A stretch of 64,000 bases of DNA from Parcubacteria group bacterium (GTDB lineage: Bacteria > Patescibacteriota > Minisyncoccia > Moranbacterales > UBA2206), in NCBI GenBank assembly GCA_041675165.1, contig JBAYUI010000001.1, positions 6,901 through 70,900 of the forward strand, read 5' to 3'. This document shows positions 1,681 through 50,784 of the stretch, piece after piece. Position 1 is the stretch's first letter. Every line of letters begins with the position of its first letter. The notes below the pieces were generated by a model. That model ran no database searches. It worked only from the letters and a program-made list of their open reading frames with translations, and was not told the origin of the DNA. The position numbers were made by a program, and so were the translations under genes.

Positions 1681-2331
1681 TTAGAGGTGTTTTATAATTT
1701 CTTTGAAGCGCAGATATTCACTCAGGCGCAGCCCCGTCCATTTGCCGATAGCTACGTTGATGGGCACGGTAATAAGGATGAGCCAGGGCGCGCTGGCAAT
1801 GAGACGGATTAATGTTTCGGAACTGGCGATGAAAAAACCGATGATGGAAATGAACAGCGTTTCAGTGGCCAGCAAGATGGCCACGCGCGTGCCTTTTTCT
1901 ATTTGCACGGCCACAAATTTTTCGACGATAGTGATCATAATGAGAATAGGGAAAATGGACACCGCGGCCAGACCCGTGCGGTGTAGATCGCCGCCTAAGG
2001 TCAAAACGCCCAAAGTTAAAATGGCTACGGCCGTGAGCATAATAGCCACGCGTGGCAGATAGAGCAGGCGAAAAGGTTTCAAAATGAAACGCATCAGCAT
2101 CCCAGTCACAATGACTGAAATGAAAATGGTGATGCCATATTTCAAGCCATTGGTGGCGAGAAATGCGAAGGTCACGATGAGTGGGGTGTAGATGCCAAAG
2201 GCCTTCACGCCCACCACTTGGCGGAGGAGCGCGATGAAAGTGGCGATGATTGGAAGCATTAAAAGTAGAATAACTGTTTCAAAAGGCAAACCTTTTTGGA
2301 TGAAGAAAAGAATGATCGGGCTGATGTGCAT
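1681..2331 (-). CDS. Polytopic (about 7 TM) membrane protein, likely the partner of the RimK-like ligase
   Basis: 216-aa highly hydrophobic ORF, same strand and immediately upstream of the ATP-grasp gene (30-nt gap). Its position matches the conserved 7TM component of RimK-like/transglutaminase/7TM cassettes. No transglutaminase-like domain is present. Confidence 0.5.
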   Translation of the reverse strand: MHISPIILFFIQKGLPFETVILLLMLPIIATFIALLRQVVGVKAFGIYTPLIVTFAFLATNGLKYGITIFISVIVTGMLMRFILKPFRLLYLPRVAIMLTAVAILTLGVLTLGGDLHRTGLAAVSIFPILIMITIVEKFVAVQIEKGTRVAILLATETLFISIIGFFIASSETLIRLIASAPWLILITVPINVAIGKWTGLRLSEYLRFKEIIKHL

Positions 2332-2377
2332 AAAGTTAAGTTAAAAGTTAATAAAGTTAGAAAGTTTGTAAAGTTTA

Positions 2378-2866
2378 TTAGTAATGGAAAATATTCATTT
2401 TGCGACTATTGAGGTGACAGAGGGCAATGGCCAAGGCATCCGCCGTGTCATCCGGCTTGGGCAGGGTGGCAAGCTTCATAATATTTTTGGTCATTTCTTG
2501 GATTTGATTTTTGTCCGCCCGCCCGTAACCCGTCAGTGCCTGCTTGACTTGGAGCGGCGTGTAACCACACACCTTAACACCTTTTTCACGCAATGTCAAG
2601 AGAATCGCGCCTCGCGCTTGAGCCACTTGGATGACGGTTTTTTTGTTCTTGAAGAAAAAAAGTTCTTCAATGGCCGCTTCCTGCGGGGCATATTTATCAA
2701 TGATTTTTTTCAGGTCTTGCGAAATTTCCAAAATCCGCTCATCATCCGATTTCTCTTTCTCCGTGCTGATGTGGCCATAGGCCAGCGGGACAAATTCACA
2801 ATTCTTCTCCGTCACAATCGCCCAACCCGTCGTGGCCGTCCCGGGATCGATGCCGAGCACTTTCAT
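2378..2866 (-). CDS. ruvC: Crossover junction endodeoxyribonuclease RuvC
   Basis: MKVLGIDPGTATTGWAIV... is a classic RuvC N-terminus, with a conserved acidic core. The ORF track extends to 2902; the internal Met at 2866 fits the family better. Confidence 0.85.
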   Translation of the reverse strand: MKVLGIDPGTATTGWAIVTEKNCEFVPLAYGHISTEKEKSDDERILEISQDLKKIIDKYAPQEAAIEELFFFKNKKTVIQVAQARGAILLTLREKGVKVCGYTPLQVKQALTGYGRADKNQIQEMTKNIMKLATLPKPDDTADALAIALCHLNSRKMNIFHY

Positions 2867-2964
2867 GCTGTCATTATTTGGTTGGGTAATATTTTTTTTC
2901 ATGCGGTTCTATATACATTATACTCCGAAAGGATGAGTTTAGATAATTTTTTTCAAATAAGAAA

Positions 2965-3768
2965 TCATTTTTCCCAAGTGGTGGGCAGATCATATTTGCC
3001 TTCCAGGTTTTTCCAAGTCAGCTCCACTATTTCTTTTATAGCTAGGGCAAACTTGGGAGATTCGATGATAAGCGTTTCGACGCTTTCAATGAGGCAAATG
3101 CGCACAAATTGATTGTCGCAAGATTCGATGGAAACTTTGGCGCTATAGATTTCCGGCGGCAAAAATTTGGCTTGGATGGATTTCAGTCCATCACCAAAGA
3201 ATTTTTCAAAGGGTTTCAATTGAGGTGTGTCGACAGTTATGCCGCGAACACGCGTGTTGTGAGCTTCTTTGTATTCATTCCATTCCAGGAATACTTGCGT
3301 GACAGCCGGAGAAGCATCTTCGTTGGAGGTGAAAAATCCAACAATTTCTTTTCCATATAAATCTTTCTGTCTATATTTGTAGGCTTGGCGCAAGCCTTCA
3401 ACGCCTTCGAAATACAGGATACTGGGTTTGTTAGTAGTGTTCTTTTGATAGGAGCGTAACTCGGGCAAGATTTTTTTAGCGGCCGAAAGGCGATCTTCTT
3501 GCTCCTCAATGAACGTATCTGGAGTTTTGGCGATGTATAGCTTCTTTTCTTCTCCTGGGATATGCACGATAAGACCTTTTTTGACCAGTTCCTCGGCGAT
3601 AATATAGGCAGTAGGGCGCTTGATGCCGGATTTGATGGCAATTTGATAGGGAGTGGCAGATCCAAGCTGAAGCAGGGCCAAATAGACCAGAACTTCTTTT
3701 TCGGACAAGCCTAAATTTTTTAGCGGTTCAATGAGATGGTTCATAGGAAGAGGAAAGTGGTTATACAT
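2965..3768 (-). CDS. TrmB-family transcriptional regulator (paralog 1)
   Basis: N-terminal wHTH region LGLSEKEVLVYLALLQLGSATPYQIAIKSGIKRPTAYIIAEELVKKGLI is typical of TrmB-like regulators, with a C-terminal effector-type domain. It is divergent from the small-ORF cassette locus. Confidence 0.65.
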   Translation of the reverse strand: MYNHFPLPMNHLIEPLKNLGLSEKEVLVYLALLQLGSATPYQIAIKSGIKRPTAYIIAEELVKKGLIVHIPGEEKKLYIAKTPDTFIEEQEDRLSAAKKILPELRSYQKNTTNKPSILYFEGVEGLRQAYKYRQKDLYGKEIVGFFTSNEDASPAVTQVFLEWNEYKEAHNTRVRGITVDTPQLKPFEKFFGDGLKSIQAKFLPPEIYSAKVSIESCDNQFVRICLIESVETLIIESPKFALAIKEIVELTWKNLEGKYDLPTTWEK

Positions 3769-3901: not shown

Positions 3902-3930
3902 TTGACTAATTTCCCAAAACGCGCTATACT
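3902..3930 (+). promoter_or_regulatory. Sigma70-like promoter P1 (TTGACT-N17-gcgcTATACT) driving the small-ORF cassette array
   Basis: -35 TTGACT at 3902-3907, 17-nt spacer, -10 TATACT at 3925-3930. Architecture and GCGCTATACT box are near-identical to the promoter at 48569-48597. The downstream leader motif GATGAGTTACGAAAAAAAGA is also shared with locus 2. Confidence 0.55.
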
Positions 3931-4038
3931 GTGTAGTCAAGATGAGTTACGAAAAAAAGACAGTCATCCTGACAACAGTTCATTACAATTTATCACCCCG
4001 CACAATCAAGGGTTCAAAATTTGGAAAGGATAAGTGTT

Positions 4039-4209
4039 ATGAAAAGCGTAACAAAAGTAGATTGGAAAGATAAAAGATTCCACATAGGATGGAGAAGTGA
4101 GGCGGAGTGGTATGCGTATTGTATAAAAATGGGGAAATTGACGATTGATGATGAGAATCTTGATCGCTACCCCCTGCGTCGTGCACTACTATCTGTCAAA
4201 GGACGCTGA
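4039..4209 (+). CDS. Cassette A: small hypothetical protein (56 aa)
   Basis: ATG at 4039 preceded by the conserved GGAAAGGA RBS-bearing header. The track start at 4021 is a TTG inside the header. No recognisable domain. Confidence 0.4.
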   Translation: MKSVTKVDWKDKRFHIGWRSEAEWYAYCIKMGKLTIDDENLDRYPLRRALLSVKGR

Positions 4210-4291
4210 AAAAGCGACGGCGCTGAGTCATCAGCGTAGCAACAGAAGTGAGGCCAATGAGGGTATGCTCATCGCATCACAAATGACAATC

Positions 4292-4424
4292 GGGCAAGGA
4301 GATTTAAAAAATCTTTCTTGCCCTCTCAATTAAGATTTTGAAATAAATTCGAAGTCTTATAGGGAAAAGTTCTTTGTAAAATATTGCCCAAGCAAGGGCT
4401 CAAAATTTGGAAAGGAGAAAGGCC
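4292..4424 (+). repeat. Inter-cassette unit 1: hairpin GGGCAAGGAGAT-N7-ATCTTTCTTGCCC + TCTCAATTAAG + conserved spacer + CAAGGGCTCAAAATTTGGAAAGGAGA header
   Basis: A ~133-bp unit with homologous copies at 5223-5347 and 5903-6004. A degenerate copy lies at 4997-5080, and header-only copies at 3990-4038 and 4861-4882. Confidence 0.7.
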
Positions 4425-4853
4425 ATGAGAAATATTTTTATATTACTCAAAGATTTCGGTGGAATGCTTAGAGTTGTCAACGCATCTTATAAATCATTCA
4501 ACATCAAGCAGAACAATGGTTCGTTGATAGAAATGGAATGTTTAGAAAGCGATTGGGCAATAGAATGGCACGAGCAGTATAAAAGTCGTGAGCCTGGATA
4601 TAATTTTGGTACTGGATCTGAGCTAAGGGCAAAATTATTTCTTTTGCGAAGCATGAATAGCGAAATTCCCCATAATGGTGGATACAGTATGACAAAACTG
4701 TACACCGGCCCCTCAGTGAAGATTGTTATGAATGAAGTGGAATATAGACTGGAGAAAAATTCCTTTTCATTCTGTTATCTGGGTGGGGATACGTATTATG
4801 GGGGAACAAGCATTTTCCCTCTGGCTGAATATTTGAAAAAATATCTCAAATAA
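4425..4853 (+). CDS. Cassette B: hypothetical protein (142 aa)
   Basis: ATG at 4425 directly after the conserved header/RBS (GGAAAGGAGAAAGGCC). No recognisable domain. The track start at 4407 is a TTG inside the header. Confidence 0.45.
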   Translation: MRNIFILLKDFGGMLRVVNASYKSFNIKQNNGSLIEMECLESDWAIEWHEQYKSREPGYNFGTGSELRAKLFLLRSMNSEIPHNGGYSMTKLYTGPSVKIVMNEVEYRLEKNSFSFCYLGGDTYYGGTSIFPLAEYLKKYLK

Positions 4854-4882
4854 AACAGTCCCAAGGGTTACAGGGTAAGTTG

Positions 4883-4996
4883 ATGAAAATAACCTGTGAC
4901 TTTGTGGAAACATTTCACGACGGTAAGGTCAACGCCGATAATGACTATCATCCGACTGATTCACGACACGGATCAAGAAATTGGGAGAAAGACTAG
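4883..4996 (+). CDS. Cassette C: candidate 37-aa peptide behind a truncated header copy
   Basis: The truncated header CAAGGGTTACAGGGTAAGTTG is followed by ATG at 4883, ORF MKITCDFVETFHDGKVNADNDYHPTDSRHGSRNWEKD, stop at 4994-4996. Below the ORF-track size cutoff. Confidence 0.25.
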   Translation: MKITCDFVETFHDGKVNADNDYHPTDSRHGSRNWEKD

Positions 4997-5222
4997 AAAA
5001 CTAATCTTTCTCCTCTCAATTGGAATTTTAAAATTAATTTTTTGAAGTTTCATAGAGACGAAATTCTTTAAGATAGATTTTATTAGCGGGTATTTTTGTT
5101 CCACCAGGGGGGATAGATAGGGCTTTGGCTATAATCCAATGACAATTTCTGTTTTGTGGAACAGAAATACCTATTCTTGGTCCCCTGTCTATGATGACAA
5201 AGGAGGTGATAAATAAGTCTGC

Positions 5223-5347
5223 GGGCAAGAAGATCAACAAATCTTCTTGCCCTCTCAATTAAGGTTTTAAAATTATTCTGAAATCTTATAGGGAAGTGTT
5301 CTTTATAAAATATCGCCCGATCAATGGCTCAAAATTTGGAAAGGAGA
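5223..5347 (+). repeat. Inter-cassette unit 3: perfect hairpin GGGCAAGAAGAT-caacaa-ATCTTCTTGCCC + TCTCAATTAAG + spacer + header
   Basis: 12-bp perfect stem at 5223-5252, then sequence about 85% identical to unit 1 through the RBS. Confidence 0.7.
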
Positions 5348-5896
5348 ATGGCTATGCGTGACATGGAAACTCTTATTGCGTTGTCTAATGGCGGCTTGAA
5401 TTTCAAAATCGGAATGGTTGAATACCCCAAAGAAGTTGACCCATCTTTTCCGAAGATGTTTCTCTATCGAGAAACATCCTATGGCAGAGAAGGTGTGCTA
5501 TGCTGGGTTGCTACACCAGAAAATACTTGTTGCAAAGATAATGTGCTCAATATCGAGAGTCTTTCTTTTGTAAAAGTATGTGGAGAAGCATTAAAATGTA
5601 TTGGTACTTCTTTGATTGAAACAGAGAAGTTAGAGGCGAGGCTTCTTCAGGAAATTCCTTTTGGATCTGCTGCTGGGAGAGATAAGCAGGATCATGATGA
5701 ATATATGGAAATGATCCACGATGCTCTAAATGGATTCTGCCAGCAGGTTGAAAAAGTTTTCTGGGAGAATGTTTATAAGCTCTCTTGCGAGATGAATATT
5801 CAAGAATTGAATATGGTTAGGTGTCATCGTTGGATAAAGATTAAAATTGATAAAGAAATGCAGAATGGAAATCCTGCATTTCAGTGGTATTTGTAA
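5348..5896 (+). CDS. Cassette E: hypothetical Cys-containing protein (about 182 aa)
   Basis: ATG at 5348/5354 after GGAAAGGAGA. The track start at 5324 lies inside the conserved header, where a G>T change creates an ATG. No recognisable domain. Confidence 0.45.
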   Translation: MAMRDMETLIALSNGGLNFKIGMVEYPKEVDPSFPKMFLYRETSYGREGVLCWVATPENTCCKDNVLNIESLSFVKVCGEALKCIGTSLIETEKLEARLLQEIPFGSAAGRDKQDHDEYMEMIHDALNGFCQQVEKVFWENVYKLSCEMNIQELNMVRCHRWIKIKIDKEMQNGNPAFQWYL

Positions 5897-5902
5897 GTGT
5901 AT

Positions 5903-6004
5903 GGGCAAGGAGATGATTCAATCTTCTTGCCCCTTCAATCAAGATTGCAAAAATGTTTTGTGATTTTGTAGAAGAAAAATTGTTCTTTAAATCCAAAAGG
6001 AGAG
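5903..6004 (+). repeat. Inter-cassette unit 4: hairpin GGGCAAGGAGAT-gattca-ATCTTCTTGCCCC + TTCAATCAAG + shortened spacer
   Basis: Homologous to units 1 and 3 but lacks the CAAGGGCTCAAAATTTGG block. It ends in the RBS AAAAGGAGAGATGG. Confidence 0.6.
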
Positions 6005-6286
6005 ATGGATATGAAAAAGATAATCGGTGGATTCGTGTCTGTTATTATTGTGCCTATGTTCCTTGTTTTTTTATGCCAAATTTTTGTGTATGATATGGCG
6101 CTGGAAGCTGTCTGGCCATTTCAAAACAAGGAGTTGGGCGAGTATGTACAAACGCTCCTAGTCAGTAAGGGCATTCCAGTAATATATTTGTATATTGCTG
6201 GAAGAATAGCGGGCGTAGGTTTGCTCGCCATGCTGACAGCCAGCGTCCTTTCTTTCAGGAAAGGAAAAGAGTGCGGAAAAGCTTAA
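6005..6286 (+). CDS. Cassette F: small two-TM membrane protein (93 aa)
   Basis: Two hydrophobic helices, VSVIIVPMFLVFLCQIFV and IAGRIAGVGLLAMLTASVL. It is the last ORF of the array before a strong terminator. Confidence 0.45.
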   Translation: MDMKKIIGGFVSVIIVPMFLVFLCQIFVYDMALEAVWPFQNKELGEYVQTLLVSKGIPVIYLYIAGRIAGVGLLAMLTASVLSFRKGKECGKA

Positions 6287-6304: not shown

Positions 6305-6342
6305 CCCGGCCGTGGAATATTTTTCCTCGGCCGGTTTTTGTT
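6305..6342 (+). terminator. Rho-independent terminator closing the cassette array
   Basis: CCGGCCG-tggaatatttttcct-CGGCCGG followed by TTTTTGTT. Confidence 0.6.
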
Positions 6343-31374: not shown

Positions 31375-31881
31375 ATGCAAAAAGAGCTTATTACAACAAC
31401 ATCGGCGCAGACCCAAGAGGCGGGGCGCTTGCTGGCCAAGGAATTTCAAGGGGGAGAAGTTATTTGTTTGTCCGGCGAACTGGGGGCGGGCAAAACGACC
31501 TTCACTCAAGGGCTTCTGGGGGGCTTGGGCCTCGAAGGTCCTTTCACCAGCCCGACTTTTTTGGTGATGAAAGAATACGAGATAAAATATCCAATATCCA
31601 ATATCCAATATCCAATAAAATACCAAAATGTCTATCATATAGATGCCTATCGGGTGGGAACGGAAGATATTTTAGCGCTCGGTTGGGAGGAGATGGTTGC
31701 CAATCCTGAAAATATTATTATAATAGAGTGGGCGGAGCGGGTAAAAGAAATTATTCCGAATAATGCTATTTGGATAAACTTTGAGTGGCTGGATGAAAAT
31801 AGGCGGAAAATAACACTGTCTAATGATCAATGTTCAATGATCAATTCTCAATCAATAATCAATACTTTAATGTTCAATTGA
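31375..31881 (+). CDS. tsaE: tRNA threonylcarbamoyladenosine biosynthesis protein TsaE, carrying an in-frame oligo-repeat insertion
   Basis: P-loop VICLSGELGAGKTTFTQGLLGGLGL and SPTF motif. (ATATCCA)n at 31587-31616 encodes YPISNIQYPI inside the gene. The 3' end runs into a repeat palindrome. Confidence 0.7.
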   Translation: MQKELITTTSAQTQEAGRLLAKEFQGGEVICLSGELGAGKTTFTQGLLGGLGLEGPFTSPTFLVMKEYEIKYPISNIQYPIKYQNVYHIDAYRVGTEDILALGWEEMVANPENIIIIEWAERVKEIIPNNAIWINFEWLDENRRKITLSNDQCSMINSQSIINTLMFN

Positions 31882-35597: not shown

Positions 35598-35622
35598 TTT
35601 CCTAAAGCTCGGCTTTAGGAAA
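35598..35622. terminator. Second copy of the REP-like hairpin TTTCCTAAAGC-tcg-GCTTTAGGAAA; terminator after polA
   Basis: Same 10-bp arms as at 6933-6955. A second hairpin (35628-35658, with a G-U pair on the minus strand) serves the convergent minus-strand gene. Confidence 0.5.
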
Positions 35623-35666
35623 AATAAAACCCCAACGGAAACGCGATCCGTCGGGGGCAGGTTATG

Positions 35667-36017
35667 CTATCTAGGATATAACTCCTTGATTCTATCAGCT
35701 CCTTTATAGATTATATAAGGGATAGCTCCTCTATCGATTTCAAGCTCTTTGCTTAAAATATTATAAATAGCTATTTTATGCTCTTTTGTTTTTCCATTGG
35801 AGTAAAAATGGAAAGTTATACCTTCGTAAGTAATACTTATGAAAGTTATCCACTGGGGAAATTTCATGGATATGTTATTAATGCAGTGGTAGCAGTAGCA
35901 GATGATGTCTCCATGATCGGGAAAATTTTTGCTATAAGTACCCTTGGGTTCTCTGATTAACGATTTGCACTCAAAGCAGGTTTGGCCAATAATTTTTTTT
36001 GGTGAAATTTTTTCCAT
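35667..36017 (-). CDS. Small Cys-rich hypothetical protein (CxxC...CxCxxC)
   Basis: From the internal Met: MEKISPKKIIGQTCFECKSL...GDIICYCYHCINN... Possibly a zinc-binding module. The track ORF extends 19 codons upstream. Confidence 0.35.
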   Translation of the reverse strand: MEKISPKKIIGQTCFECKSLIREPKGTYSKNFPDHGDIICYCYHCINNISMKFPQWITFISITYEGITFHFYSNGKTKEHKIAIYNILSKELEIDRGAIPYIIYKGADRIKELYPR

Positions 36018-36089
36018 AGTTATTCTCCCTTGCGTTGTTGGTTGAGAGCTAGTTGTGAATAGGATAGTATTCAATATTTATTGCATCAT

Positions 36090-36179
36090 TCAATTAATAT
36101 TGCCTTCTGGAATTATTTTGTAAAATCCAGGCAAGAATTCTTCCAAAGCAAAATCTTTGATAATTTCAGGTACTTTCAT
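36090..36179 (-). CDS. Candidate 29-aa peptide divergent from TrmB paralog 3
   Basis: MKVPEIIKDFALEEFLPGFYKIIPEGNIN, preceded by GAGAGG 7 nt upstream of the ATG. The longer track ORF (36090..36350) looks non-coding upstream of this Met. Confidence 0.2.
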   Translation of the reverse strand: MKVPEIIKDFALEEFLPGFYKIIPEGNIN

Positions 36180-36267
36180 TTTAGCCTCTCTTGTTAGTTT
36201 TAGTGTGTGCTCGCAGCCTCTTTTTTTAAAAAACAAGTAATAAGATAGTGTATGACATAGGAGAAAT

Positions 36268-36300
36268 ATTGTCAATAATTGTTCAACAAATGTTGACAAT
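36268..36300. promoter_or_regulatory. Inverted repeat ATTGTCAA-N17-TTGACAAT (with nested TTGTTcaACAA) upstream of TrmB paralog 3; candidate operator
   Basis: 8-bp perfect arms read from the sequence, 13 nt before the TrmB3 start. Confidence 0.35.
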
Positions 36301-36312
36301 ATATTAACAACA

Positions 36313-37113
36313 GTGTACGATAGGCATATGTTAGCCAGTAACACTCTCAAAAAATTGGGTCTAAATGAGAAAGAAACGCGAGTCTATCTGGCGCTACTTC
36401 GGCATGGACAAGCTAAACCGGCGGAACTGGCGAAACTCACTAAACTTAATCGGGCAACGCTTTATCATACTGCCAAAAGCTTGGTTTCATCCGGAATTAT
36501 TGCTGAAGACTTGAGTGGCAAGGCTTTGCAATATGTGATTTTGCCGATTGATAATATGAAAAATATTCTAGAATCAGACAAGAGAGAATTAAAAGAAAAA
36601 GAGAAGCTGGTCAAGCAGGCAGTGGGAGAATTGCAGATGATCAGTTCAGAAAAATCATATCCGGTGCCCAAAATTAGATTCATAGAAGAAAATGATTTGG
36701 AAAAATTCTTGTTCGATAATTTAGTGAAATGGCAAAAAGAGGTTATTGCATCTGATGGACACTGGTGGGGCTTTCAGGATCATACTTTTGTGGAAAATTA
36801 TCCTGCTTGGATTGAGAAGAGTTGGAAAACTAAAGAAAGCCAACGTGGAAACTATTCGCCGCAAATATTTACTAATGATTCAAAGACCGAGCGGAAATTG
36901 AAAGGAAAATATCAGCCGAAGCGGCAGGTGAAATTTTTAGCGGATACTAATTTCACGGCTACAACCTGGGTTTGTGGGGATTATCTAGTAATGATTTATA
37001 CTCGCCAGGTCCCATATTATATTATTGAAATTCACGATGAGATGATGGCGCTCAATATGCGCGAGATTTTTAGGAGGTTGTGGAGAAATCCGGTTGGACA
37101 AAAAGTTGATTAG
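36313..37113 (+). CDS. TrmB-family transcriptional regulator (paralog 3)
   Basis: LGLNEKETRVYLALLRHGQAKPAELAKLTKLNRATLYHTAKSLVSSGII wHTH, similar to paralogs 1 and 2. Confidence 0.6.
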   Translation: MYDRHMLASNTLKKLGLNEKETRVYLALLRHGQAKPAELAKLTKLNRATLYHTAKSLVSSGIIAEDLSGKALQYVILPIDNMKNILESDKRELKEKEKLVKQAVGELQMISSEKSYPVPKIRFIEENDLEKFLFDNLVKWQKEVIASDGHWWGFQDHTFVENYPAWIEKSWKTKESQRGNYSPQIFTNDSKTERKLKGKYQPKRQVKFLADTNFTATTWVCGDYLVMIYTRQVPYYIIEIHDEMMALNMREIFRRLWRNPVGQKVD

Positions 37114-47534: not shown

Positions 47535-47559
47535 ACGACCGTGGTGGTCGTGTTTTTTT
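47535..47559. terminator. Bidirectional terminator hairpin ACGACC-gtggt-GGTCGT + T7
   Basis: Lies between convergent genes (the hypothetical membrane gene on + and TrmB2 on -). Confidence 0.5.
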
Positions 47560-48346
47560 ATCCCCACGGGTTTTCGGCTTTCTTGGCAAAAGTGAAAATG
47601 GTTTCGAAGAGGGTGTCGATGAGGCGAAAGAGGGCGGGGTGTCGGATGGTGATGGTGAGCGCCACATCAGGGAAGAGAAAAGAAATTTTGTTATTATACA
47701 ATACGACCAGACCCTTGATCGGCAAATTGGCTTCTGGGAGGGTGCGGATGTTCCACATCCGGTCACTGAGAATGCGATAGTTCTCAGGTGTGATGGATTT
47801 TTTGATATCAAACAAGATTTCTTCAGTGAAAATGGCCTTGGTCAGGATTTTCCTTTCCGCAACTTGGGTGAAGAAGAAATCCCAATATTTATTATCTAGC
47901 AGTTTCAATTCCGCTTCGGCCCCTTTTTTATCTTCAATAACTTTGAAAGTTGAGCCGACCGGCATGTGGATCACTTCGTCATATATTTTTTTGAAAGCGG
48001 CGTTGGATTCCATGATTTCGATCTGGGGCATTTCGCTTTCGGCATCATGCATTGATTCCAATTGGGGGAGTAGGGTTTTGAAATCCCCGACGCTTTGTTG
48101 CAATCTTTCGGCCAATTCAGCGGGGGCAATCGGGGAGATGAGTAATTTCTTACCTTTTTTCGTTTCCGTCAGGACTTTTTTCTTTAGGAGGCTTTTAATG
48201 TGAAAATAGGCCACGGTGCGCCCAATTCCGGCCTTTTCAGCGATTTCCGCAATGCCGGACTTTCCCAGCTTTAGGCACGCGGTATAAATCTCCGATTCCG
48301 CCTCAGAAAAAGCGAAGTTTTTCAGGATGTCGTTGATTTTTTCCAT
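47558..48346 (-). CDS. TrmB-family transcriptional regulator (paralog 2)
   Basis: From the internal Met: MEKINDILKNFAFSEAESEIYTACLKLGKSGIAEIAEKAGIGRTVAYFHIKSLLKKKVL wHTH. Divergent from cassette locus 2. Confidence 0.6.
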   Translation of the reverse strand: MEKINDILKNFAFSEAESEIYTACLKLGKSGIAEIAEKAGIGRTVAYFHIKSLLKKKVLTETKKGKKLLISPIAPAELAERLQQSVGDFKTLLPQLESMHDAESEMPQIEIMESNAAFKKIYDEVIHMPVGSTFKVIEDKKGAEAELKLLDNKYWDFFFTQVAERKILTKAIFTEEILFDIKKSITPENYRILSDRMWNIRTLPEANLPIKGLVVLYNNKISFLFPDVALTITIRHPALFRLIDTLFETIFTFAKKAENPWG

Positions 48347-48568
48347 AAGGTTATATGTTTTGTCATTCCTGCGCAGGCAGGAATCTAGTCGCAAATTATT
48401 AAGTTTCTACATTGGATCCCCGCATGCGCAAGGATGACAGGGAAGATATTAACTCCATCTTAGCACCTTTTCCGTATATTGTCAACAAAATTATTCATCA
48501 AAATATAATAAAATAATGCTTAAAATAAAGGATAATAATATAATATACCAATGATTTGACTATAATTA

Positions 48569-48597
48569 TTGACGTTTGCTTGAAATTGCGCTATACT
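48569..48597 (+). promoter_or_regulatory. Sigma70-like promoter P2 (TTGACG-N17-gcgcTATACT), paralogous to P1
   Basis: -35 at 48569-48574, -10 at 48592-48597. The downstream leader GATGAGAAACGAAAAAAACA matches the P1 leader. Confidence 0.55.
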
Positions 48598-48702
48598 ACG
48601 TTGTTACGATGAGAAACGAAAAAAACATCGCAACACAGTACATCGAAATCACCTCACAAAATTCGCTCAATATTGAGCAAAATATTTCACAAGGAGAAAG
48701 TT

Positions 48703-48927
48703 ATGATAGTTTTTATACTAACCTCGAACAAGCCATGCAAGAGTATTGAGGGAGTTTATCTTAAAGAGAGCACTGCAATTGCTGAGGATAATAGAGTATG
48801 TCCAGGATGGCAGGAGCGGGAAAGGGCAGAAATGAAAAAAAGGGAAGGCAAAAATATTTCCGAAATAGGATATTATATGTATTCACCTGAAATAAGTATC
48901 TATGAAAGAGAGGTGATTGAAAAATAG
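48703..48927 (+). CDS. Cassette G: small hypothetical protein (74 aa)
   Basis: ATG after RBS CAAGGAGAAAG. The stop codon overlaps the GGGCAACGAGAG...CGTTGCCTCTCTCATTGAG boundary hairpin, which is homologous to the locus 1 hairpins. Confidence 0.4.
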   Translation: MIVFILTSNKPCKSIEGVYLKESTAIAEDNRVCPGWQERERAEMKKREGKNISEIGYYMYSPEISIYEREVIEK

Positions 48928-49060
48928 GGCAACGAGAGAACAACAATTCATCGTTGCCTCTCTCATTGAGATCATTTGTGAAATGGTTTCATAGGGGAAA
49001 AGTACGTTGAAAATTGAATAGCCTGATAATGGGCGAAATATTATATCAAGGAGAAAGATC

Positions 49061-49456
49061 ATGGAGATAGTATTCGATATGGAGTTTATCAAGAGTGAAG
49101 CTGACAAGATGAAAAAAAGAAGCCTAGCTGTTGACAAACAAATCCTAAAAAGATCGAAAGCAAAAATCAGGCCATCTGTAATTAAATCTTTAGAAACGCA
49201 GGGTTTTGATGAGAAAATGCATATAGTTTCTGACCGCATATTGGAGATTTTTGCAGAAGATTGCAAGCACAGAGATAGCTGTATCGGTTGTAATGAAAAA
49301 GCAAGTGAAGTGGTAGCCGTCATGCTGAGAGATTTTATTCCTGATGATGGTAACCCTCCTAGGTTTTCGCGCTGTTGCAGTTTATCAGAGCTTTATAATG
49401 TGATAGTAGGTATGAATGTTGATAGATTCATATGGATTCCTTTTCGTAACTGGTGA
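49061..49456 (+). CDS. Cassette H: hypothetical Cys-containing protein (131 aa)
   Basis: Preceded by a spacer homologous to the locus 1 inter-cassette spacer (TCATAGGGGAAAAGT..TTGAAAATTG vs CTTATAGGGAAAAGTTCTTTGTAAAATATTG) and RBS CAAGGAGAAAG. Confidence 0.45.
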   Translation: MEIVFDMEFIKSEADKMKKRSLAVDKQILKRSKAKIRPSVIKSLETQGFDEKMHIVSDRILEIFAEDCKHRDSCIGCNEKASEVVAVMLRDFIPDDGNPPRFSRCCSLSELYNVIVGMNVDRFIWIPFRNW

Positions 49457-49463
49457 GTACTTA

Positions 49464-49500
49464 CCCCAGATAACAATTCGTTATCTGGGGTTTTTGTTTT
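49464..49500 (+). terminator. Rho-independent terminator closing cassette locus 2
   Basis: CCCCAGATAAC-aattc-GTTATCTGGGG + TTTTTGTTTT. Confidence 0.65.
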
Positions 49501-49548: not shown

Positions 49549-50784
49549 ATGCTAGATAACCCGGAAAAATTCATTCGAGATAATTCGCCGGACGGCGGTT
49601 TTTTGCAGTCATCCGAGTGGAGGAAGTTTCAGGAGAAGGTGGGGAGGAAAACTCATGCCATTACCGGCGAGAGTTTTAATGCGTCTATTGTGAGTCATAA
49701 GCTTCCATTAGTTGGAACTTATTTTTATGTGCCAAGAGGGCCGGTGATGGAAATATCCAATATCCAATATCCAATATCCAATAAAATCCCAAATTCAAAA
49801 TCCCAAATTCAAGACGGAGTAGTTGAAATGATAAAATTAGCGGAGAAAGAAAATGCAGGATGGATTAGGATCGACCCAGCATCAGAAGATGTTTTGGAAA
49901 TGATTAAAGGTATTGTAGGGACAGACCTTGTGTCTGTCCTGGATGAGCAGGTACATCGTTCTGGGCGGACACAAGGTCCGCCCCTACGGAAATATAAAAT
50001 TACTAAGGCGCCGCATAATGTGCAGCCGAGAGAGGTTTTTATTATTGATATTACGAAAACTGAAGAAGAGCTTTTGGCGGAGATGAAATCTAAGACAAGA
50101 TATAATGTTAGGCTGGCGGAGAAGAAGGGAGTTAGTGTGAAGGCAATAACCAATAATCAAGAAACAAGGAACAAACAAATTTCAAATGACAAAATCCAAA
50201 TTTCAAATAAAATCCCAAATCCAAATGAACAAAATACGGAAAAATATATTGCGGAATTTTTAAGACTAGTGAAGATTACGGCGAGGCGGGATGGAATCAC
50301 TTCTCATCCGGAAAGCTATTATCGCCAGATGCTAGAAATCATTCCTAGTGATATTTTAAAACTATACGTAGCAGAATACGAAGGCAAGGTGATTGCAGCC
50401 AATCTAGTGTTGTTTTATGGTGAGACTTGCACGTATATGCACGGGGCGTCGGATGATGAATATCGAAATGTCATGGCGCCGTATTTGCTGCAGTGGCAGC
50501 AGATCAAGGATGCTAAGAAGGCAGGGTGCAAGAGGTATGATTTTGGAGGCGTCAGCGTTCAACCCCTCCGCACATTATTCACAACCCCTCCGTCCCAATT
50601 ACGGGACACCTCCCCTGAGTACAGGGGAGGGGGCAATTCGTGGAGTGGGATTACGCGGTTCAAGACCGGATTTTCGCCGAAGACGGCGTCGACTATTTTT
50701 CCCGGTAGTTATGATATAATTATAAACCCAAGGATGTATTGGTTATATAGAGGAATCCAGAAAGTTAAGAGTCTTATGAAATAA
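49549..50784 (+). CDS. FemAB-family peptidoglycan interpeptide-bridge aminoacyltransferase, with three in-frame low-complexity/repeat insertions
   Basis: FemAB/FemX-like blocks: DGGFLQSSEW, TRYNVRLAEKKGV, LYVAEYEGKVIAANLVLFYGETCTYMHGASDDEY, YDFGG...ITRFKTGF. Inserts: ISNIQYPISNKIPNSKSQIQ at 49753-49815, NKQISNDKIQISNKIPNPNEQ at about 50160-50235, and a GC-rich hairpin-bearing insert at 50560-50640. Confidence 0.65.
   Translation: MLDNPEKFIRDNSPDGGFLQSSEWRKFQEKVGRKTHAITGESFNASIVSHKLPLVGTYFYVPRGPVMEISNIQYPISNKIPNSKSQIQDGVVEMIKLAEKENAGWIRIDPASEDVLEMIKGIVGTDLVSVLDEQVHRSGRTQGPPLRKYKITKAPHNVQPREVFIIDITKTEEELLAEMKSKTRYNVRLAEKKGVSVKAITNNQETRNKQISNDKIQISNKIPNPNEQNTEKYIAEFLRLVKITARRDGITSHPESYYRQMLEIIPSDILKLYVAEYEGKVIAANLVLFYGETCTYMHGASDDEYRNVMAPYLLQWQQIKDAKKAGCKRYDFGGVSVQPLRTLFTTPPSQLRDTSPEYRGGGNSWSGITRFKTGFSPKTASTIFPGSYDIIINPRMYWLYRGIQKVKSLMK

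Follow-up and report, generated by a model that had tools for sequence, protein, structure and literature searches.

A stretch of 64,000 nucleotides from a Parcubacteria group bacterium (hereafter the window) contains two arrays of small, mostly orphan genes, one at 3-6 kb (locus 1) and one at 48 kb (locus 2), in which unrelated open reading frames (ORFs) are embedded in the same scaffold of promoter, structured leader and double-hairpin spacer, each array lying divergent from a gene for a TrmB-family regulator (R1 and R2, respectively). With a probability of roughly 0.6, we favor the explanation that the leader and spacer elements are expression and processing punctuation of a polycistronic mRNA, that they double as homology for recombination, and that this operon design is widespread in Parcubacteria. 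The original prediction, made from the sequence alone, had described two copies of the scaffold carrying different cargo, and all of its elements were found where it had placed them or a few bases away. The analysis covers these 64 kb of the source genome and about 30-35 related loci (L numbers below) fetched around homologs of R1 and R2, with gene tables read for ~12 of them. Two covariance models were built, one for the leader and one for the spacer; alignment significance was assessed by comparing local alignment scores with those of 500 dinucleotide shuffles, and promoters were called by a consensus scan scored as matches out of 12. Locus 2 is organized as follows (RBS, ribosome-binding site; HP1 and HP2, the two hairpins of the spacer).

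47558-48346, minus strand: R2, TrmB-family regulator with a winged helix-turn-helix, 262 aa, divergent from the locus 2 array (Pfam PF01978, E=5.5e-9)
48348-48446, no strand assigned: insertion of ~99 bp resembling a miniature inverted-repeat transposable element (MITE), with inverted ends TGTCATTCC...GGATGACA and two internal hairpins, in the 5' untranslated region (UTR) of R2
48457-48485, minus strand: R2 promoter, TTGACA-N17-TAAGAT with TG extension (consensus 10/12; conserved in orthologous loci)
48569-48597, plus strand: promoter P2, sigma-70-type, TTGACG-N17-TATACT (consensus 10/12)
48603-48634, plus strand: 5' stem-loop of the leader, GTTACGATG, A-rich loop (AGAAACGAAAAAAA), CATCGCAAC (covariation); it includes the GATGAGAAACGAAAAAAACA of the original prediction
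48635-48655, plus strand: single-stranded box ACAGTACATCGAAAT plus ATCACCTC, kept in leaders, in degenerate form after HP2 in spacers
48665-48697, plus strand: small hairpin GCTCAATATTGAGC, A/U-rich tract and RBS AAGGAGA (48691-48697), read from the sequence
48703-48927, plus strand: ORF G, 74 aa, first cargo cassette, an orphan (singleton cluster, no Pfam match)
48927-48959, plus strand: HP1, 12-bp hairpin immediately 3' of the ORF G stop codon (fold z=-4.3)
48959-48998, plus strand: HP2, outer stem UCUCU/GGGGA, internal loop, 11-bp inner stem and 3-nt loop (RNAalifold, covariation)
48931-49016, plus strand: match of the spacer model in the G-H spacer (71.2 bits)
48999-49060, plus strand: box AAAGTACGTTGAAAAT, small hairpin GCCT..GGGC and RBS AAGGAGA (49048-49054), from alignment to the locus 1 spacers
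49061-49456, plus strand: ORF H, 131 aa with a CxxC...CC motif, second cargo cassette (no Pfam match)
49463-49500, plus strand: intrinsic terminator closing the array, a 12-bp GC-rich stem followed by a T-run

Locus 1 contains the corresponding parts, with more cassettes.

2965-3768, minus strand: R1, TrmB-family regulator (Pfam PF01978, E=1.3e-15)
3799-3771, minus strand: R1 promoter (promoter scan)
3902-3930, plus strand: promoter P1, TTGACT-N17-TATACT (promoter scan)
3936-4038, plus strand: leader, with stem-loop (3936-3973), box, ATCACCCC, small hairpin and RBS (leader model and alignment)
4039-4209, 4425-4853, 4883-4996, 5354-5896 and 6011-6286, plus strand: the array of five ORFs, A, B, C, D and E, respectively
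4293-4383, plus strand: spacer element s1, comprising HP1, HP2 and box (spacer model 86.6 bits; fold z=-5.6)
4983-5077, plus strand: spacer element s2 (63.9 bits), followed by an ORF-less remnant at 5078-5222
5224-5312, plus strand: spacer element s3 (77.9 bits)
5904-5994, plus strand: spacer element s4 (72.2 bits)
6306-6342, plus strand: intrinsic terminator closing the array (fold z=-5.2), followed by UUUUUGUU

The segment from P2 through its leader (48569-48661) proved to be a near-copy of the segment from P1 through its leader (3902-4005), as had been claimed (z=9.5; none of the 500 shuffles reaches this score). From the -10 region on, 31 of 38 bases of the shared promoter-leader stretch are identical, and a 38-nt pattern, GCGCTATACT..GT.GT.A.GATGAG..ACGAAAAAAA, is present at just two places in the window (3921-3958 and 48588-48625; 0 expected from 100 shuffles). 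P2 itself had been correctly recognized (-35 TTGACG at 48569-48574, a 17-nt spacer ending in GCGC, -10 TATACT at 48592-48597), but the notation N17-GCGCTATACT counts the GCGC twice, a trivial slip. The G-H spacer (133 nt; the locus 2 leader is ~100 nt) matches s1 end to end over ~148 nt (z=9.8) and also s3 (z=7.5), again with 0 of 500 shuffles reaching either score, and s1 and s3 are 86 % identical over 113 nt. Plain pairwise comparison of the G-H spacer with the shorter, more diverged s2 and s4 is not significant (z=1.0 and -0.3, respectively), but the covariance model scores all five spacers, s2 and s4 included, at 64-87 bits. The 3' part of the G-H spacer is, furthermore, homologous to the region 48665-48697 of the leader (z=7.1). 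Because the leader and spacer alignments beat all shuffles, the similarity exceeds the -35/-10 and Shine-Dalgarno consensus and extends well beyond generic promoter and RBS signals. The boundary that had been described as a hairpin followed by TCTCAATTAAG is indeed homologous between the loci; it consists, however, of two adjacent RNA hairpins, HP1 and HP2, with TCTCAATTAAG forming the 5' strand of HP2. The ORFs placed into this scaffold differ: as predicted, ORFs G and H have no significant BLASTP similarity to ORFs A-E and no Pfam match, and a search for hidden paralogy among cargo ORFs A-H recovered neither significant mutual similarity nor a Pfam match. Judged by their sequences, these alignments show the two loci to be built from homologous parts.

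In the window, the spacer model yields exactly 5 matches, all within the two arrays and all on the plus strand, and the leader model exactly 2 (3931-4005, 48.9 bits; 48598-48661, 64.6 bits). Elsewhere in Parcubacteria, ~30 further spacers and ~24 further leaders were found in roughly 25 loci, all sense to small Pfam-less ORFs divergent from a TrmB-family gene; the claim of at least two scaffold copies with different cargo is thereby extended from the two in the window to ~25 other loci, nearly all with different cargo. The contigs of L063, L066 and L067 each carry several paralogous TrmB loci with elements. The regulators R1 and R2 are distant paralogs (BLASTP, 30 % identity over the N-terminal 122 aa); R1 has 270 homologs, and R2 has 63 homologs at 43-80 % identity in Parcubacteria, with the divergent regulator-array arrangement in all R2-orthologous loci and the same sigma-70 promoter ~125-145 nt from the regulator start in almost all loci (~20 orthologous loci). 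Both proteins contain an N-terminal TrmB-type winged helix-turn-helix (the PF01978 matches pass the cut-off). In the C-terminal 180 aa, where archaeal TrmB carries a sugar-binding effector domain, Pfam matched nothing, and at E<=0.01 a profile of R2 orthologs retrieved no sequence relative from the PDB. The divergent TrmB-family regulator is part of the module and is swappable itself. Outside these loci, the leader pattern had 0 matches to species-representative genome contigs (either the pattern is too strict or the genome is not represented), and the spacer model gave no match at E<=0.01 on 264 kb of unrelated viral contigs sharing a 17-mer. Spacer k-mer matches in viral sequences were dismissed as chance: the 33 of a first scan from their number alone, and the 27 loci of a second scan because none had a model match. 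A literature search combining Parcubacteria or Patescibacteria with RNA motif, TrmB or cassette found no relevant description.

Both the leader and the spacer bear the marks of selected RNA structure. The two arms of the leader stem change together across loci (GTTACGATG/CATCGCAAC, GTTAAGCT/AGCTTAAC, GTCATGA/TCATGAC, GTTGAGGT/ACCTCAGC), with covariation of the UA/CG and AU/UA/CG types and a loop of ~6 to 22 nt. In a plain MAFFT alignment (A7), 76 % of the cells of the 9-pair leader stem are paired, compared with 28-44 % in slid registers, and the 17 double-change cells are reached by 0 of 500 shuffles. The stem-loop is followed by the box (A)AGTWCNTTNAAAAT, often by ATCACCTC, then by a small variable hairpin (equivalents with differing stems occur in the leaders of L041, L042, L060 and L061) and AAGGAGA-N6-7-ATG; the box has the consensus AGTWC..TT.AAAAT, and the same box stands after HP2 in the spacers (AGTTCTTTAAAAT). 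The order of parts in the spacers is constant across genomes, namely stop codon, HP1, HP2, AGTTCTTTAAAAT box and RBS of the next ORF, with a conserved core of 73-96 nt inside spacers of roughly 90-140 nt; at locus 2, the ORF G stop codon (TAG, 48925-48927) abuts or overlaps the first G of HP1. The latter hairpin is present in 24 of the 24 elements examined, with 8-17 predicted pairs (10-14 in most), and its stems differ widely (GGCAAGAAAG.., GGAGGAGC.., GGGCGAGG.., GGGAATCAAAA..), with 19 G.U pairs in total. HP1 is stable (dG of -17 to -21 kcal/mol) and has no U-tract; compared with shuffles, the hairpin folds reach z=-4 to -5. In general, HP2 pairs CUCUC with GGAGA in its 5-bp outer stem and, beyond an internal loop, continues in an inner stem of 9-11 bp. 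RNAalifold, run on a MAFFT alignment, predicted 14 pairs in HP2, 10-11 of them with compensatory changes, and on an alignment of 24 non-redundant spacer copies fitted to the covariance model (A6), 95.8 % of the HP2 cells are paired (82 % in shuffles, 45-60 % in slid registers), with 47 double-change cells, a number that 0 of 500 shuffles reach. About 21 % of the paired HP2 cells are G.U or U.G on the ORF-sense strand and, accordingly, A.C mismatches on the opposite strand; together with the covariation, these pairs point to a function in mRNA rather than as a DNA recombination site. Rfam 15 contains no comparable family: the window returned only two tRNAs, and permissive scans of both loci stayed at chance level. 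Comparative analysis thus shows the parts to be conserved RNA-type structures specific to this class of operons.

P1 and P2 are the only strong promoters of their arrays, all ORFs and elements lie on the plus strand, canonical terminators are found only at the array ends, and a promoter scan detected no recurrent -35/-10 pair in s1-s4 or the G-H spacer. The lack of a recurrent internal promoter and the restriction of terminators to the ends fit one polycistronic transcript.

The turnover of cargo between related loci is high. BLASTP clustering of the 50 element-associated ORFs, that is, those starting just 3' of a leader or spacer, gives 42 families. Of these, 39 are singletons and three recur: a CheY-receiver-like family with 6 members, that of ORF H with 3 and that of ORF D with 2. 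The receiver-like and H families are each found both as first and as later cassettes. Among 30 cargo proteins compared with Pfam, only a radical SAM/SPASM enzyme in L035 passes, for the Radical_SAM domain alone, and the few sub-threshold matches include a weak receiver-domain match. At the nucleotide level, L065 is 88 % identical to the window in R2 and 91 % in promoter and leader, has no homology to window positions 48663-48953 (small hairpin, RBS, ORF G, GAGGTGAT and HP1) and carries, in place of ORF G, an ORF of 132 aa that is unrelated to it and has a different HP1; from 48954 on, the two sequences are homologous again, across HP2, box, ORF H (52 % aa identity) and terminator and into the next gene. 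L041 and L042 share the 5'UTR with the window up to the ATG, and their first ORFs are unrelated. L070 is likewise a close relative of the window (RuvC, 88 % aa identity; RuvC/7TM flank, 80.3 % nt; leader, 82.5 %), but its syntenic regulator (1109-1891) is only 31 % identical to R1 at the protein level, with homology restarting at the promoter, so that the regulator gene itself was exchanged between these close relatives. L070 lacks ORFs A, B and E, and a 1129-bp block (4860-5988: ORF C, s2, the remnant, s3, ORF D and s4) is 92.6 % identical there, above the housekeeping flank. ORF C and s2 recur in an array of L067 that belongs to a different TrmB paralog. In the R1-orthologous loci L066, L067 and L068, regulator, leader and spacers align with the window but A, B, D and E do not; throughout the related loci fetched, A, B and E are absent, whereas C and D are present in other arrays. 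These comparisons show that cargo genes, and even the regulator, have been replaced with boundaries inside the scaffold. As regards the suggestion that the cassettes form a possibly mobile or recombining system, the recombining part is borne out by replacements that the scaffold delimits, and the mobile part is better read as homologous recombination via the conserved flanks.

The same comparisons bear on the simplest alternative, ordinary paralogy, according to which a regulator-operon unit was duplicated, its signals were conserved, and its ORFs diverged or decayed in place with no exchange. The paralogy of R1 and R2 (30 %), the wide distribution of both ortholog families and the third TrmB gene of the window, which also faces small ORFs, are what such a history would leave. 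Nevertheless, the cargo ORFs differ in length and in sequence from the start codon on, although the flanking non-coding DNA is 80-90 % identical; the internal cassette block stands at 92.6 %, against 80.3 % for the housekeeping flank and 31 % for the regulators; and the cassettes of ORFs C and D recur next to different neighbors in other arrays. We consider simple paralogy with divergence in place unlikely, in view of the sharp replacements and of a cassette block whose identity exceeds that of its flank.

The favored combination of mRNA punctuation and recombination homology would operate as follows. The TrmB-family regulator gene lies divergent from a strong sigma-70 promoter, whose transcript would open with the conserved stem-loop, followed by the single-stranded AGTWC..TT.AAAAT / ATCACCTC box. 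One to five small, mostly orphan genes per array each have a strong AAGGAGA RBS, with an HP1-HP2-box element between genes and a canonical intrinsic terminator at the array end. HP1 may serve as a 3' stabilizer of the upstream cistron, and HP2, with its internal loop, as a processing or protein-binding site; processing at HP2 would leave a 5' stem-loop and box on the downstream cistron, mimicking the 5' end of the primary transcript. The same conserved sequences bracket all cassettes, whether these sit in one array, in paralogous arrays of a genome or in different genomes. This repetition of scaffold sequences around the cassettes would provide portable homology for recombination, and homologous recombination could replace, add or delete cargo or regulator with the expression signals undisturbed.

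Several points weigh against this explanation. We infer the single polycistronic mRNA, the processing at HP2 and the stabilization by HP1, as well as recombination as the mechanism of exchange, from sequence comparison. The left breakpoints vary, lying 3' of ATCACCTC in L065 and at the ATG in L041 and L042, which is compatible with homologous exchange but not proof of it. The strongest covariation figures come from the model-fitted alignment A6, although an independent plain MAFFT alignment (A4) shows the same trend. A symmetric DNA operator co-evolving with a dimeric regulator could mimic the covariation of the leader stem, the evidence against such an operator being limited to the variable length of the loop and a few G.U pairs. 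Finally, the model leaves unexplained a motif at the ORF ends and its complement in the leader. A perfect Shine-Dalgarno-like GGAGGTGAT stands 5-15 nt 5' of HP1, at 48910-48917 and 5202-5210 in the window and also in L035, L038, L042, L060, L061, L065 and L066, where, in three different reading frames, it overlaps the 3' end of the cargo ORF (its final codons or its stop), usually that of the first cassette; at locus 2, it is the GAGGTGAT just 5' of the ORF G stop codon. The ATCACCTC of the leader (48648-48655), which resembles the 3' end of 16S rRNA, is the exact complement of GGAGGTGAT, but the two show no sign of covarying.

Three ideas about the leader were set aside. Long-range pairing between its ATCACCTC and the GAGGTGAT at the ORF end drew on their co-occurrence (Fisher p ~0.001), which is confounded with first-cassette position and accompanied by no compensatory change. 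For sequestration of the ORF's own RBS by ATCACCTC, acting as an anti-Shine-Dalgarno sequence, the complementarity to AAGGAGA is weak. A leader peptide starting at the ATG within the conserved GATGAG (3942-4073 and 48609-48749) was discarded because the ATG is not kept in orthologs (GATAAG, GCTAAG) and the peptides are unrelated.

An alternative mechanism would be integron-like, with HP1 and HP2 folding, as single-stranded DNA, into attC-like sites by which a site-specific recombinase assembles promoterless cassettes behind one promoter. The arrays do resemble integrons in that mostly orphan, promoterless cassettes in one orientation follow a single promoter, each ORF is followed by a conserved structured repeat, cargo turnover is high, and the succession of outer stem, unpaired internal loop and inner stem in HP2 recalls the R/L-box layout of attC. 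However, no integrase, recombinase or transposase is annotated beside either window locus (the flanking genes encode TrmB, RuvC, a 7TM protein, DUF4325, YebC, a bestrophin-like protein, FemAB and MurE) or in the ~12 related loci with gene tables; RYYYAAC/GTTRRRY core sites are absent, the HP2 outer stem being CUCUC/GGAGA; and, in contrast to integrons, including sedentary chromosomal ones with near-identical attC sites, the conserved unit is not a short crossover core but extends over the entire spacer, into the 5'UTR and RBS of the next gene, with structure that is selected on the sense RNA strand, where attC folds in the bottom DNA strand. Variable breakpoints that respect no one fixed position, the lack of a recombinase gene and the many G.U pairs on the sense strand all argue against a site-specific mechanism of this kind, which is quite unlikely.

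No more probable, in our estimate, is a terminator-promoter design of the type of the PeSL (promoter early stem-loop) elements of T4-type phages, in which HP1 would terminate transcription and a promoter in HP2 or the box would restart it, making each ORF its own transcription unit. The PeSLs are stem-loop regulatory cassettes flanking small orphan genes in hyperplastic regions; they delimit insertions, deletions and replacements between close relatives and are thought to mediate shuffling by homologous recombination (Arbiol et al. 2010, PMC2839356; Comeau et al. 2014, PMC4122927). The functional analogy to PeSL-mediated shuffling fits (PMC2839356, PMC4122927), given that the array elements bound the indels and replacements that distinguish the window from L065 and L070 in their orphan genes, that a stable hairpin stands right after each stop codon and that an A/T-rich ..TTTGTAAAAT-like box lies downstream. 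Yet a PeSL combines a terminator with a sigma-70 promoter to create separate units, whereas HP1, unlike the array-end terminators, has no U-tract, the spacers contain no recurrent -35/-10 pair, and the leaders carry the same box downstream of P1 and P2, strong promoters that make a second one needless. The lack of detectable internal promoters and U-tracts argues against a PeSL-type design; moreover, the array structures covary like RNA elements inside one transcript, and the arrays reside on the chromosome of a bacterium of the candidate phyla radiation (CPR), with a dedicated TrmB-type regulator, not in a phage.

Among intergenic palindromes, the repetitive extragenic palindromes (REP) and bacterial interspersed mosaic elements (BIME), as well as the Correia elements of Neisseria, are co-transcribed in operons and can stabilize upstream mRNA or be processed by RNase III; they are found genome-wide in both orientations and spread by transposition, through REP-associated tyrosine transposases (RAYT) or by terminal inverted repeats with target-site duplication. 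The array elements share the palindromic, intergenic nature of these repeats but are confined to one operon type, orientation and register. That they are merely tolerated selfish miniature repeats (MITE-, REP- or Correia-like) inserted between genes is very unlikely, notwithstanding their size of ~90-140 nt, their richness in palindromes, the 86 % identity of s1 and s3 and the presence of true MITE-like insertions in these loci, because their confinement to TrmB-associated arrays in one orientation and in a fixed register between stop codon and RBS (5 copies in the 64 kb searched, all in the two arrays and on the plus strand) argues against it, as do the lack of terminal inverted repeats spanning the element and of target duplications, covariation that indicates selection for structure, and the RBS context that the element provides to the next gene.

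A parallel to HP2 is found in phage T7, in which, as Dunn and Studier reportedly described, RNase III processing sites lie between the cistrons of the early and late polycistronic mRNAs. These sites are hairpins with an internal loop, and the upstream cleavage product retains a protective 3' hairpin. HP2 is likewise a conserved irregular hairpin with an internal loop between cistrons, where cleavage would be putative; in contrast to T7, the arrays have two adjacent hairpins and a box that is also present in the primary leader, and there is no sequence similarity. The system thus resembles PeSLs, T7 sites and integrons in different respects but has the defining features of none.

Further observations concern individual cassettes and neighboring regions. 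ORF H is the one cargo protein that was compared with large protein collections: it has a single homolog (53 % identity) among 1.84 billion representative proteins and a weak homolog in L035, the NCBI protein WC022_00250 (from a "Parcubacteria group bacterium" metagenome-assembled genome, MAG) is identical to it, and its AlphaFold model (pLDDT 54) is unreliable. In L035 (Moranbacteria MAG, 1713-3251, minus strand), the Cys-rich 127-aa homolog of ORF H is followed by an HP1/HP2 spacer and the radical SAM/SPASM enzyme, and next comes a 211-aa protein, from its sequence a putative methyltransferase; these neighbors hint at a possible peptide-modification context for the H family. In locus 1, the stop codon of ORF A (56 aa) lies 82 nt upstream of HP1, unlike in the other cassettes, and an ORF in another frame (4145-4333) overlaps ORF A and extends into HP1, which suggests that this first cassette is frameshifted or decaying. 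The ORF-less stretch between s2 and s3 (5078-5222) has an inverted repeat of its own, GTTCCAC...GTGGAAC, terminates in ATGATGACAAAGGAGGTGATAAATAA and looks like a decayed cassette or an unrecognized non-coding element.

The MITE-like insertion in the R2 5'UTR does not belong to the scaffold; it is absent from the close relative L065, in which homology is otherwise continuous. Similar elements occur just upstream of TrmB start codons once in L041 and twice in L063. A 43-nt low-complexity repeat, AAATATCCAATATCC..., is present in two 98 % identical copies 18 kb apart (31585-31627 and 49751-49793), the second inside a FemAB-like ORF (49549-50784) just downstream of locus 2. The third TrmB-like regulator gene of the window lies on the plus strand at 36313-37113; divergent from it, on the minus strand, are two small ORFs (~36178-36089 and 36016-35667) closed by an intrinsic terminator. 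This region (35620-37113) has neither a leader stem-loop nor an HP1/HP2 spacer and is matched by neither model.

The genomes of CPR bacteria are tiny and rich in unannotated small genes, and little is known of how these genes are regulated and exchanged. The present analysis contributes two new conserved structured RNA motifs, the 5' leader and the intercistronic double hairpin, which are absent from Rfam and for which covariance models are available; a genomic signature (TrmB-type regulator, leader and punctuated array) that marks hotspots of orphan-gene turnover; and direct evidence, from comparison of relatives, for swaps of cargo and regulator at the boundaries of the scaffold. Only tentatively, and with a good deal more doubt than attaches to the operon design itself, can it be proposed that Parcubacteria, and perhaps the wider CPR, possess a cassette system that is independent of an integrase and in which RNA punctuation elements act both as expression organizers and as standardized recombination adaptors, through which small accessory genes and TrmB regulators could pass from one paralogous array, or one genome, to another. 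If so, this would be an "integron without an integrase" of ultra-small symbiotic bacteria, possibly encoding host-interaction or defense factors. Should the dual role of the elements hold true, streamlined genomes would be able to keep flexible accessory genes without dedicated mobile-element machinery, and the signature would provide a handle on the fast-evolving genes that are most likely to be involved in interactions with hosts or phages.

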